Of a stretch of DNA of 40,079 nt, positions 29,501 to 32,500 are shown in pieces. The position numbers are program-made. The stretch lies in the IMG/VR virus record IMGVR_UViG_2721755728_000013. One strand, given 5' to 3'. The stretch is from a virus. Lineage: Duplodnaviria > Heunggongvirae > Uroviricota > Caudoviricetes. The stretch's first letter is position 1. Every line of letters begins with the position of its first letter.

Positions 29501-32500
29501 GTGCACTCAGTGACAGTGTCGGGCGACTTGAGCCATCGTGTGCATCAGCAGGAGCATCAATGGCATAGCGCGGTGCCAGATTCGGTAAGCCAACAGCCTC
29601 CTGGAGTTTCTGACAGGCACCAAGCACTGAAGAGTTAGACAGGTTTAACTCCCGGCGCATAAAGTCCAGCAGGATCACGCCAGCCTGCATCTTGTCAGCA
29701 GCCTGTCCGGATAATTTTTCCGGTGCGCTGGTTACCATATCGAAAGTACGGATCACCTTCAGATGGAATGACGGGCTGATCCACATTGCATAGGCATACA
29801 CCAGTTCCTTGCAGACATACGTTCCCCGTTCATTTCCCCCATGAATCACACTCACCGGGTCAACACCCAAATTCTGGGTGTTGGTCAATTCATGAACAAG
29901 CTCAACAGTTTGTTGGCTGGAAAGAAACTTTCCCGGCTCCTTGGTTCTGGCATTTGCACCAGATGCTACTGCTGCGCGATGCAGATCGTTCAGGCTGTAA
30001 CGCCCATAAGCATCACGACGAACTTCAATACCATCAATGACCATCAGATTATTCATACTTCGTTTCTCCTCTTGATCAGGCGGCTGCACCCGCCGTTTTC
30101 TCGTACTTACTGATAGTGATCTCGACCTTCCCTTTCGGGATAACCGGTCCCCACTCCACCAGCATTCTTTTCACCTGACTGTCGTCTTCCCACACACCCG
30201 CATGGGTCAGGGCGTCAAACAGCGCCTTGTTATAGTTGTCCAGATCGCGGATCCGGTTATCCGGAGGAAACAACACGATCTCCACTGAAGCAGGTGCCGA
30301 CGTTGGTTTCGGCAGACGACGTAACTGCTCAACTATTGCTGCGCACGCCGCGCTCTGGAATTTGCGCCCCGCTGCGCTTATCAGACTCTTACCAGCAAAC
30401 GCCCCTTTGTTGGGGTGTCGCCAGTACGTGTTCACGCTGGGCGGAAAAGGCAGGATCAGCTTCATACTTTCAGGCCCCTCTCATGTAACCAGTGGGCTGC
30501 ACGCAGCCTGGCGTTTTCCTCACCGGCAAGCAGTGCGCGGATAATCCCGACCGCCTCGCTGTCGTCGTCCTTCACCGCGGTATGAAGAGTTATCCCCCGG
30601 GCCACGCCACGCTTTATCGTGATGACGCCTTTTTTCTCCAGTGCGCGAAGATGCTCCACCGCTGCATTCACCGAACGGTATCCCAGCATGGTTGCCACCT
30701 CCTGATTGGTTGGCGGAAAGCCACGTTCTTGCTGGTAAGAAATCAGCATATCCAGCACCTGCTGCTGGCATTGAGTTAACGTCGTCATGCCGCCATCTCC
30801 CTGACCAGTTTTTCCGCCTGCTGGCGAACCTGCGCCAGAAAGGCCTCACCACATGCCTCAAGTTCATCGCGCCCGATGTAGCTGATTGCCGGTCCCTTCC
30901 AGGTCTTGTCGAAAACAGCAATAGCACCAGCGAAGAAAGCGCCTGTCGGCACCTGCTTCTCATCCTTCGGGATAAACCAGGCAGGCAGTTCAAAACCAAT
31001 ACGCCCGCGAATAAAAGCAATATGGTCCGCATCTTCCGGCCACCACACTTCGCTGGTGGCAGCTTTGATCAGGAAAACATAGCGCCCGCCCTTATCACGC
31101 ATGGCACTGGCATGTTTCATGATGTAACGCATGCCGGTGATGTATTGCCCCTCATGCTGACTGGCGCGGCTGTATGGGGGATTACCAAAGGCAGCACCTT
31201 TAAGCTCCGCAAGACGTTCTGACCAGTCATGCGCCAGCGCGTTATCTTCCGCCGTGTAATACGCGGCACATTTGGCGTTATCACCGTCAGTAAACAGATC
31301 CAGAACAAACGGGCCAAACAGGGTGTTAATTCCCCAGAAAATGTTGTCCGGCGTGCGCCACTGATCGCCCACTTCCTTCAGTTCATGGGCTGGTTTGTTC
31401 CGCAGTTCCACCAGCGCCTGGCAATATTTATTACTCATTAAGCCCCCACGTAATTCCCTGACAGATACCACTCTTCACCCGATGCAGCGCGCTTGCTGCT
31501 TTTCCGTAAGCACCGCTCACGACGCGCCAGAAAATTGTTTCGTTCTGGCTGGGAGTGGCTTTCACGGAATGCCGCCATCCACACCGTTGCAGCACGACGG
31601 TATAAGCCCCTGGACTCCAGTTCTTCAGCCTGGCGGGTCAGGCACAAAATCACCCGTGGATCGTTAGTGCCGACATAGAAATTGCGCACAGGTCTGGTTT
31701 CTCGAACTGGTTGTGGTTCCGGTTCCTGCGCTCTCTCAGTCAGGCGCGGGAAATGTCTGCGTGTATCTCCTTCACAACGGTGAGCCACACGCCCACTCTG
31801 ACGTAACTTGCTTGCTGACTGCAGAACGCGCTGCCGTGAGTAACCTGCAAAAGCATCCGCAATGTCTCCGGAAGTACATCCCGGATGGGCTTCAATGAAT
31901 TTCTGAACTTCATTCAAAAGACTCATGATCACCCCCTGAATCCTGCCGGGATCTGGCTGTAGTCCACGTTGTCGTAACTGGATTTGAAGTACGGGTCTTC
32001 GCGTTTTTCGGTGTACGTGCTGACGGACGGTGATAAGCGCAGGGAAAGCTCATCCCATTTTTCCCGCAACTTCGACGGGCTGAGCACGTTACGGCACCAG
32101 AACGGATCGCGGCTGACGCGGCTGTACATCTCGCAGATTTGTTTGTGAGTACGACCATCCTGCACACACATCAGGCGAATTTCGTTTGCCCAGGCTGTCC
32201 AGTTCGGTTCTTTGGGACGAACCACCTCGCCGTCACATTCGGCGGCTTGCTCGTACAGGGCGATGATTTTTTTCCAGAGCCACTGTGCGCAGGTCAAATC
32301 ATCCTGCGTTCCCCACTGGCGCTTTTTAGGGCTGAATACAACCGCATCAGGATGGCGAGTTAAAAAATCCTGTTCATCCGTCTGCGTGTCCGGTTGCGAA
32401 GCGTCCGGACGAGAAGGTTTTTTATCTGACGGATCATGTTTTGATTTTACTGACGGATCCCCGCCAGATTCTGACGGGTGAAAACCCGCTTTTTTGCCAG

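Follow-up and report, generated by a model that had tools for sequence, protein, structure and literature searches.

The question raised by this locus is what a tailed phage does with a gene for the DNA-binding half of LexA alone. Within the window, by which we mean the whole 40,079-nt stretch of DNA analysed (IMG/VR record IMGVR_UViG_2721755728_000013), the original prediction had placed such a gene in a nin-like region, translationally coupled to its neighbours, and had proposed that its product is non-cleavable and may bind SOS boxes, for example as an SOS dampener or as a regulator of the box inside cI. The reading frame was borne out, with 108 codons and an ATG start, and the nin-like location was confirmed, the gene falling between Q and an O-like replication gene, in the series O-like, PerC-like, Dam, LexA-like, RusA, KilA-N, DUF968 and Q. 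The local features are as follows.

30462..30788, minus strand: the LexA-like gene, encoding a stand-alone LexA-type DNA-binding protein of 108 aa (ORF list, PF01726, PHROG 362, identical RefSeq protein).
30785..31471, minus strand: the phage Dam (N6-adenine methyltransferase) gene, a variable upstream neighbour (PF05869).
30076..30465, minus strand: the RusA Holliday-junction resolvase gene, a near-constant downstream partner (PF05866).
30785..30788, minus strand: ATGA in which the Dam stop and the LexA-like start overlap, a signature of translational coupling (read from the sequence).
30462..30465, minus strand: ATGA in which the LexA-like stop and the RusA start overlap, likewise a signature of translational coupling (read from the sequence).

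The ATGA overlaps at both junctions support coupling to both neighbours, and a scan of the minus strand between O and RusA found no consensus promoter.

The protein is identical to WP_000210187.1, which RefSeq names "LexA family transcriptional regulator", and it matches the profile of PHROG 362, a "transcriptional repressor" group, from end to end (residues 1-108 against profile positions 1-106 of 106, E 2.6e-59). SfV orf42, SfII gp44, PHROG 362 and WP_000210187.1 are the same gene, at 95-100% identity and in the same slot, between Dam or PerC and RusA; all are annotation-only entries. As a sequence observation the gene is thus ordinary, and its LexA-type annotation is not new, the exact protein being already so labelled in RefSeq, GenBank and PHROGs. 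A full-text literature search for a functional study of the E. coli/Shigella family found none, and the family appeared only in annotation tables (PMC8136144). New here are the conserved tail hairpin under purifying selection, a glutamate at position 44 that is never retained, and a RusA gene downstream in 93% of loci.

The gene nevertheless ranks with the most widespread of the unstudied regulator-like genes in E. coli prophages. WP_000210187.1 is found in 2232 of 5426 complete E. coli genomes (41%), with up to four copies in some, and the protein also occurs in the SfII, SfV, mEp460, cdtI and Stx2 phages, so that its carriers include Shiga-toxin and Shigella serotype-converting phages. All hosts among the database matches are Enterobacteriaceae; a Pseudomonas locus from the genome scan (L087) was uninformative. 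Across subfamilies of 40-50% identity the length holds steady at 104-112 aa and the novel tail is conserved. A search with the PADLOC defence models gave no relevant match.

We examined whether the N-terminal part is a true LexA domain by profile, sequence and structure comparison. The predicted likeness was confirmed by PF01726 (LexA_DNA_bind), which matched residues 1-65 over the entire profile (1-65 of 65; E 2.6e-19; 69.2 bits, the gathering score being 23.7). In BLASTP, E. coli LexA, in a sequence consistent with the PDB matches, was 43% identical over residues 1-90 (LexA 1-86, E 2e-21), and phmmer against the PDB retrieved the LexA DNA-binding domain 1lea (E 6e-16) as well as full-length LexA, 1jhh and 3jso. 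An AlphaFold2 model (pLDDT 84) superposed in Foldseek on the LexA-DNA complex 3jso with an rmsd of 1.0 A over 68 residues, and on 1lea with a TM score of 0.86 normalised to the target.

30585..30788, minus strand: winged helix-turn-helix domain, codons 1-68 (AlphaFold2 model, Foldseek to 3jso, LexA alignment).

In the model this domain comprises helices 6-22, 28-35 and 40-52 and wing strands 56-58 and 66-68. Compared with the E. coli LexA N-terminal domain (1lea, 3jso), the fold is the same winged helix-turn-helix (rmsd 1.0 A) and identity is 43-51% over about 68-90 residues. The product therefore has a genuine LexA-type winged-helix domain. It differs from E. coli LexA in having no S24 peptidase/dimerisation domain and in adding a new 35-residue helical hairpin, and its gene is phage-borne, probably inside the PR operon, rather than autoregulated from an SOS promoter.

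The absence of the S24 Ser-Lys cleavage domain also held up. PF00717 (Peptidase_S24) did not match the product, whereas it did match the phage's own cI (34117-34809). TIGR00498, the NCBIfam lexA equivalog, aligned only over profile positions 1-91 of 203, scoring 70.3 bits where the cut-off is 110.95. The sequence stops at residue 108 and does not contain the S24 domain with its Ser119-Lys156 dyad, which is also the dimerisation domain of LexA. RusA starts 4 bases before the LexA-like stop codon, which leaves no space for the remains of a degraded S24 domain. Without a Ser-Lys autopeptidase domain autocleavage is impossible, in agreement with the predicted non-cleavability.

In place of the peptidase domain the protein carries a short tail of its own.

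30480..30569, minus strand: family-specific C-terminal helical hairpin, codons 74-103 (AlphaFold2 model, conservation, dN/dS).

The two hairpin helices, 74-88 and 93-103, are modelled with a pLDDT of about 90, while the linker before them (residues 71-75) has low confidence (pLDDT <50). Relatives with as little as 40% identity still have the conserved tail, and a search with the tail alone returned no matches beyond fragments of the LexA-like family itself. Values of dN/dS were 0.05-0.24 for the DNA-binding domain and tail alike, 0.07-0.31 for the tail taken by itself and 0.05 within the E. coli subfamily, showing that the whole protein, hairpin included, is under purifying selection. By analogy with engineered proteins, the hairpin is probably a dimerisation module. 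Fusions built on LexA's DNA-binding domain repress only when the fused module dimerises (PMC7102963), and in LEVI and LexRO a LexA domain joined to an unrelated small dimerisation module makes a working repressor (PMC7102963). This is the architecture that we infer for the phage protein, whose tail would supply the dimer contact; LEVI and LexRO differ in being synthetic and light-controlled and in using the altered-specificity LexA408 domain.

To see which DNA such a protein might recognise, we compared the residues through which LexA contacts bases, Ser39, Asn41, Ala42, Glu44 and Glu45 (PMC3091678, PMC13416735).

30633..30671, minus strand: recognition helix VNAAVEHLRALEK, codons 40-52 (alignments, residue census).

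Four of the five are retained, namely Ser39 just before the helix, Asn41, Ala42 and Glu45; the fifth, Glu44, is Val. Across the family Ser39, Asn41 and Ala42 do not vary and Glu45 is for the most part retained, position 45 differing between subfamilies (E, D, A, L or I), and the wing residues Arg64-Gly65-Ile66 are conserved as in LexA. Position 44 in the residue census of the short family is V, A, T, F or L and never Glu, which is present there in 74 of 99 other LexA-type matches. The family-wide replacement suggests an altered operator. Such a systematic difference weakens the idea of an SOS-box binder or SOS dampener, which stays plausible from the residues retained. Loss of acidic residues in LexA (E45K, E71K) raises its DNA occupancy (bioRxiv 10.1101/2020.07.07.191791), so the loss of Glu44 may strengthen rather than abolish the predicted binding.

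Enterobacteriaceae share the CTGT-N8-ACAG SOS box. We scanned 81 loci for SOS boxes, using our own matrix derived from those of E. coli.

34326..34345, no strand assigned: perfect SOS box TACTGTATATAAAAACAGTA inside cI, a candidate target only (sequence scan, 26.5 bits).

Many of these phages do have strong SOS boxes as possible targets, namely the one inside cI and one at the start of a late-region methylase gene. An obligate link of the gene to canonical SOS boxes was rejected, as a strong box is missing from about half of the loci: none was found within 6 kb in 26 of the 55 loci with full flanks. Likewise, no operator conserved across subfamilies was found within 4-6 kb of the gene, and 4-8-4, 5-6-5 and similar palindromes common to subfamilies proved to be non-homologous chance matches only. 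Three subfamilies share, at the nucleotide level, the palindrome GGCGGGTGCAGCCGCC at the 3' end of rusA, one variant being compensatory. It was rejected as an operator since in 16 of 97 RusA-associated copies the LexA-like gene is missing upstream, its half-site does not resemble CTGT, and its RNA stability is no greater than that of shuffled sequence.

Taken as a whole, these features are best explained, although only tentatively, by a functional LexA-type winged-helix DNA-binding protein that is insensitive to RecA and would act as a non-inducible SOS-type repressor. The rightward (PR) operon would yield the protein as one of its delayed-early products and hence, presumably, mainly in lytic growth. 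The hairpin would replace the LexA C-terminal domain as the dimerisation module, and the dimer could bind a 16-bp LexA-type palindrome as a repressor that DNA damage cannot inactivate. Once host LexA is cleaved, it might re-occupy SOS-type boxes on the host chromosome and at phage sites such as the cI-internal box, with affinity or specificity shifted at the base normally read by Glu44. The behaviour thus proposed, SOS-box repression that damage does not reverse, is that which Ind- (non-cleavable) LexA and the LexA 1-84 fragment would show. Ind- LexA, unlike the phage protein, retains the C-terminal dimerisation domain. The natural 1-84 fragment, which ClpXP and Lon degrade after cleavage (bioRxiv 10.1101/2020.07.07.191791), is without a dimerisation module; the end of the phage protein is different and carries its own tail. 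If SOS boxes are indeed occupied in a manner that damage does not undo, SOS-dependent processes would be altered in induced cells, among them, by our reasoning, mutagenesis, the induction of other prophages and, in polylysogens, the release of Stx.

Several observations count against such an SOS surrogate, namely the loss of Glu44, the boxless loci, the lack of a shared operator and a divergence faster than that of the neighbouring RusA. Between subfamilies the LexA-like protein is 44-52% identical and the adjacent RusA 64-83%, and such fast divergence is not expected of a mimic of a fixed host site. The analogue discussed next, which activates and does so without binding the host SOS box, also speaks against it.

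The strongest alternative is that the protein recognises a phage- or host-specific, non-SOS palindrome of its own and activates or represses a particular promoter, with no general effect on the SOS regulon. We regard this as a serious possibility, though on balance an unlikely one. Its precedent is gp6 of the Bacillus thuringiensis tectivirus GIL01, a truncated LexA homologue 44% identical to host LexA, which binds the late promoter P3 at GaCACAn nTGTGaC, activating it, and which does not bind the host SOS box (PMC6182141). GIL01 gp6 is the closest characterised analogue of the LexA-like protein and the only characterised phage one. Both are phage-encoded, early products (as we infer for the LexA-like protein) and not inactivable by RecA-stimulated cleavage, and they resemble host LexA to a similar degree (about 44% for gp6, 43% to E. 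coli LexA for the present protein). In contrast, gp6 is a winged helix only, whereas the LexA-like protein adds the hairpin; gp6 comes from a different type of phage and another host phylum, the nearest LexA to each protein being that of its own host lineage; and gp6 activates a late promoter, whereas the phages considered here use Q for late control.

Beyond this precedent, an operator of its own would fit the family-wide replacement of Glu44, the variation of position 45 between subfamilies, the faster evolution relative to RusA and the half of loci with no canonical box nearby. The invariant Ser39, Asn41 and Ala42 and the mostly retained Glu45, however, point to a half-site like CTGT; the 4-6 kb searched held no candidate operator that subfamilies have in common; and the Q antiterminator already serves late transcription. 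Were this alternative true, the gene would be the second natural case, after GIL01 gp6, of a phage-recruited LexA domain with a new regulatory job.

The RecA-insensitive repressor that we prefer can also be drawn in a bolder form, which we consider rather improbable. Here prophages in about 40% of E. coli strains, Stx2 phages among them, would carry a LexA surrogate that is proof against RecA and re-silences SOS-controlled genes once its own phage enters lytic growth. Its targets would include host SOS functions and the LexA-controlled antirepressors or morons of rival prophages, its operator preference would be shifted by the loss of Glu44, and its tight linkage to RusA would reflect a functional tie to phage recombination. 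If true, this would amount to a widespread, unstudied layer of SOS manipulation and inter-prophage competition.

The linkage to RusA itself allows another reading, in which the protein is not a general transcription factor but an accessory that targets or tempers RusA on DNA, or damps an SOS signal arising from RusA or the methyltransferase. We hold it to be clearly unlikely. In its favour, a start-overlapping RusA is the downstream reading frame in 81 of 81 near-identical loci, and RusA is kept downstream in 200 of 215 loci (93%), spanning four subfamilies 44-52% identical, while the upstream neighbour varies among at least nine unrelated families; the divergences of the LexA-like protein and RusA are moreover correlated (r 0.66). 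On the other hand, RusA of the same clade directly follows a methylase, without the LexA-like gene, in YeP2, KpF5 and S.Typ Adana, and RusA occurs in 353 phage records against 60 for the LexA-like gene. The adjacency could be co-inheritance following one insertion, and an Enterobacter variant with a different C-terminal part still adjoins RusA, so the tail is not obviously a contact. We know of no precedent for such a partner.

On the upstream side, the gene preceding the near-identical loci is Dam in 63 of 82 and PerC-like in 19 of 82, and in distant relatives other methyltransferase families occupy the Dam slot. The first three lineages examined had three unrelated methyltransferase families upstream. 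A functional tie to DNA methyltransferases was rejected, because about 40% of loci have non-methyltransferase neighbours and methyltransferase-RusA pairs exist without the gene; we take the pattern to reflect the genome slot.

A dedicated regulator of the cI-internal box, which would bind 34326-34345 after induction, block or modulate cI transcription and so commit the phage to lysis, appears quite improbable. The box is a perfect 20-mer, identical to the one that lies 20 bases upstream of E. coli K-12 umuD and to the umuDC operator, and it is the only strong SOS box within the 40-kb window. Among the 49 IMG/VR phage contigs with the cI box, 37 have the gene, and all 13 full-length GenBank phage matches to the present cI allele also figure among the matches to the LexA-like protein. 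Yet only 20 of the 81 loci with a 98-100% identical protein (about 25%) have the box, and 12 of the 49 box contigs (about 24%) lack the gene. An obligate link was thus rejected as incomplete in both directions, and regulation of this box is not the gene's general function. The 26 boxless loci noted above point the same way, while in the present phage the box stands as a possible target. In addition, the two features lie about 3.5 kb apart, so that linkage by descent can account for their co-occurrence; nothing promoter-like overlaps the box; and host LexA, its obvious binder, is a sufficient explanation for a canonical box.

A more remote proposal is that the protein serves as a decoy or substrate, its LexA-cleavage-like segment being cut in trans or titrating RecA*, host LexA or the cI peptidase. 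Residues 79-90 do align with LexA 75-86 (LLAGEE against VAAGEP), which sets Ala88-Gly89 opposite the Ala84-Gly85 cleavage site. The pair is, however, unconserved in the family (AN, VG, SG, TR or ER), and the segment is modelled with high confidence as a helix and not as a strand-loop, making this reading highly improbable.

Finally, that the gene is a non-functional remnant of a captured lexA, as its resemblance to a truncated lexA and the lack of an assigned function might suggest, is contradicted by the low dN/dS, by the constant length and conserved novel tail across subfamilies and by the intact copy in 41% of complete E. coli genomes, and has next to no likelihood. Stand-alone LexA DNA-binding-domain proteins of 65-150 aa are also numerous among predicted viral structures.

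The 108-residue product of the gene under study is a LexA-type DNA-binding domain that stands alone.

30462-30788, minus strand: LexA-like gene, an ORF with an ATG start and 108 residues

A Pfam profile search matched residues 1-65 of the protein to the whole of PF01726 LexA_DNA_bind (profile positions 1-65 of 65; E 2.6e-19), scoring 69 bits where the gathering threshold is 23.7. E. coli LexA is 43% identical to the protein over residues 1-90 (BLASTP), and the PDB sequence matches found with phmmer were LexA entries only (1lea, 1jhh, 3jso, 8trg and 3k2z). In an AlphaFold2 model calculated from a family alignment of 20 sequences (pLDDT 84), residues 1-68 superimposed on the DNA-bound LexA domain of 3jso with an rmsd of 1.0 Å. 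Profile search and superposition both bear out the likeness to the LexA N-terminal winged helix put forward in the original prediction.

The peptidase half of LexA is truly absent. The Pfam search gave no match to PF00717 in this protein, while cI from the same window does match, and the NCBIfam lexA equivalog aligned over profile positions 1-91 of 203 only, at 70.3 bits, under its cut-off of 110.95. There is also no room for a degraded remnant, because the next gene overlaps the stop codon. The proposal of a LexA-type DNA binder that sits in the nin region, cannot be cleaved and has no S24 domain was right. In the alignment the LexA cleavage region, VGRVAAGEP, has a counterpart, VGIIRALLAGEE; we rejected this segment as a cleavage site, since its Ala-Gly pair is not conserved among family members and the segment is helical in the predicted structure, and we read it as a vestige of that region.

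The gene has been seen many times before. Megablast found it at 95-100% identity in 50 phage records, including SfII, SfIV, mEp460, 1720a-02 and Stx2c and Stx2a phages; SfV and cdtI also carry it (tblastn), as do 2232 of 5426 complete E. coli genomes, a single genome holding as many as four copies. Records annotate it as "LexA DNA binding domain protein", "LexA-like protein" or "repressor, lexA family", the identical protein WP_000210187.1 bears the PGAP name "LexA family transcriptional regulator", and PHROGs gives it a family of its own, phrog_362 "transcriptional repressor" (E 2.6e-59). A comparison of Stx phages placed a pfam01726-only "LexA family transcriptional regulator" pham in the lysis-lysogeny genes (PMC8136144), and a Foldseek search of predicted viral structures showed that unrelated phages encode many LexA-domain proteins, 65-150 residues long, that stand alone. 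Since the gene is already annotated everywhere, the observation as such has no novelty: the sequence feature is known. A full-text literature search turned up no experiments on the enterobacterial family. The remaining interest lies in the function of a very widespread prophage gene, to which we add three small new facts: a family-specific hairpin, a family-wide loss of Glu44 and a near-obligate position before rusA.

In the AlphaFold2 model, a low-confidence linker (residues 71-75) follows the winged helix and leads into a confidently predicted helical hairpin (helices 74-88 and 93-103). This tail was found in the LexA-like family only, and it is kept in every full-length relative, including eight representatives at only 40-53% identity, recovered when 1.8 billion proteins were searched exhaustively. 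In each of three subfamilies the DNA-binding domain and the tail have similar dN/dS values, in the range 0.05-0.24, indicative of purifying selection on the whole protein. The recognition segment reads RSVNAAVEHLRAL, compared with RSPNAAEEHLKAL in LexA. Of the five DNA-contact residues of LexA, Ser39, Asn41, Ala42, Glu44 and Glu45 (PMC3091678, PMC13416735), the window's protein retains Ser39, Asn41, Ala42 and Glu45 and has Val for Glu44. Glu never occurs at position 44 in the 224 loci of four subfamilies or in the eight distant representatives, which have V, A, T, F or L there; of 99 other LexA-type matches, 74 carry Glu44. LexA can occupy DNA more strongly once its DNA-facing surface has lost an acidic residue, as in E45K and E71K (bioRxiv 10.1101/2020.07.07.191791), and the change of Glu44 to Val may accordingly adjust both affinity and specificity.

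Two variant architectures were also observed. In an Enterobacter prophage (locus L085, 5001-5453 in locus coordinates), a 150-aa variant with a 57% identical LexA domain occupies the usual slot between a methyltransferase and RusA, and its C-terminal part of about 80 residues is completely different from the hairpin tail. Seven database proteins of 140-350 aa (P0128, P0135, P0141, P0144, P0148, P0187 and P0210) matched the query in two separate stretches; they are DNA-binding proteins of LexA type in which a further segment also matches the query. These could be tandem domains, which would be another route to a binder with two heads that does not need S24 for dimerisation.

In hand, then, are a LexA-fold domain with four of five contact residues, the lack of an autopeptidase, a selected hairpin, the nin placement and coupled translation. 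Our preferred though tentative reading is that the protein is an SOS surrogate. It would be a delayed-early product expressed from PR; the minus-strand interval from O to RusA showed no promoter-like site. It would dimerise through the C-terminal hairpin, as we infer from the precedent that LexA DNA-binding-domain fusions repress only if the fused module dimerises (PMC7102963), and would bind a LexA-type palindrome, imposing a repression that DNA damage could not reverse. The proposed role as SOS dampener is plausible, but it is weakened by the Glu44 change.

The main rival, itself rather unlikely, argues by analogy with gp6 of phage GIL01, a truncated homologue of LexA that shares 44% identity with the LexA of its own host and activates the late promoter, where it binds a non-SOS palindrome (PMC6182141). 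The systematic loss of Glu44 and the faster divergence of the LexA-like protein favour such a regulator; against it stand the invariance of Ser39, Asn41 and Ala42 and a palindrome search near the gene that yielded no candidate operator. The search for non-SOS palindromes conserved near the gene in all subfamilies returned one match.

30079-30094: 16-bp palindrome GGCGGGTGCAGCCGCC at the rusA 3' end, over the last codons and the stop

It is nucleotide-identical in three subfamilies, with one compensatory variant, GGCGAGTGCAGTCGCC, among RusA genes whose proteins are only 64-83% identical. We do not propose it as an operator of the LexA-like protein, as 16 of 97 RusA-associated copies have no LexA-like gene upstream and the half-site is unlike CTGT; it was absent from the three same-clade RusA genes without a LexA-like partner that we examined. 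The palindrome could act in RNA, as a hairpin ahead of the ribosome-binding site of the following gene, or else as a DNA site.

That the LexA-like protein serves as an accessory to RusA is improbable. The minus-strand order is cro, cII-like, O-like replication gene, PerC-like, Dam, LexA-like, RusA, KilA-N, DUF968 and Q, and ATGA stop/start overlaps at both ends of the LexA-like gene agree with the claimed nin-region placement and translational coupling. The loci gathered were 81 from IMG/VR encoding a 98-100% identical protein, 136 from two diverged subfamilies and, in addition, Kosakonia and Enterobacter prophages. RusA is the immediate downstream ORF in all 81 near-identical loci and in 200 of 215 overall, and its divergence correlates with that of the LexA-like protein (r 0.66); between subfamilies, RusA is 64-83% identical to the window's RusA and the LexA-like proteins are 44-52% identical to one another. 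RusA occurs in 353 phage records and the LexA-like gene in 60, and in YeP2 and KpF5 same-clade RusA genes directly follow a methylase. RusA does not need the LexA-like gene; one old insertion before rusA followed by co-inheritance fits these patterns, and a functional tie is conceivable. The upstream ORF is variable: Dam in 103 loci, a 75-residue protein in 55, a PerC-like gene in 20, an O-like gene in 10, and several other methyltransferase families.

30785-31471: phage Dam (PF05869), in the upstream slot of the LexA-like/RusA pair
L083 3156-4979, L085 4342-5004 and L205 2329-3420 (related loci, locus coordinates): upstream-slot methyltransferases
31438-31932, minus strand: PerC-family protein of 164 aa, yfdN-like, just upstream of Dam

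Methyltransferases of at least four unrelated families occupy this slot (phage Dam PF05869, a fused C5 and D12 enzyme, MT-A70 and an N4/N6 'DPPY' type), which looks like a hot spot of methyltransferase exchange. PerC/Pch homologues of EHEC prophages are known virulence regulators, so two regulator-like nin genes stand side by side in this phage. The O-like gene (31929-32870) contains clustered inverted and direct repeats at 32441-32629, GTCAGATTTTGA(C/T)GCGTC-like, encoding repeated KSD(A/P)S-type peptide units; they look like an iteron-type replication origin, as in the lambda O gene.

Still less probable is a dedicated regulator of the SOS box inside cI. Scanning with a position matrix of our own, made from E. 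coli SOS boxes and not a curated resource, we found exactly one strong SOS box in the window, TACTGTATATAAAAACAGTA (34326-34345; 26.5 bits), a perfect box identical to the 20-mer that precedes umuD by 20 bases in E. coli K-12. The box covers about codons 70-76 of cI (34117-34809, plus strand), in the linker that joins the HTH domain to the S24 domain, 3.5 kb from the LexA-like gene in one module. Both alleles of the window's cI (SfII type and mEp460 type) keep it with 0-1 spacer change, and no consensus promoter overlapping it was found. The cI box is present in 20 of the 81 near-identical loci, and among 49 IMG/VR contigs with the box and enough flank the LexA-like gene is found in 37 and absent from 12. 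Gene and box therefore usually co-occur, yet neither requires the other, and the suggested regulation of this box fails as a general role. A decoy or trans-cleavage substrate is very improbable, and a dead remnant most improbable of all.

The same matrix scan detected no strong SOS box in 26 of 55 loci with full 5.5-kb flanks. The KilA-N gene contains two matches to CTGT-N8-ACAG with one mismatch each, spaced by 26 bp (29601-29616 and 29627-29642); the better scores only 10 bits, the window holds 16 such matches against 13.9 expected, and the two are probably due to chance. In another 23 of the 81 loci, a box covers codons 3-9 of the gene for a 350-residue DNA methylase, immediately ahead of the holin gene.

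L002 10086-10105 (related phage, locus coordinates; absent from the window): strong SOS box TACTGTAAAAATAAACAGTG, codons 3-9 of the 350-aa DNA methylase ORF

Its presence in these loci suggests that the methylase gene is a late-region moron under LexA control.
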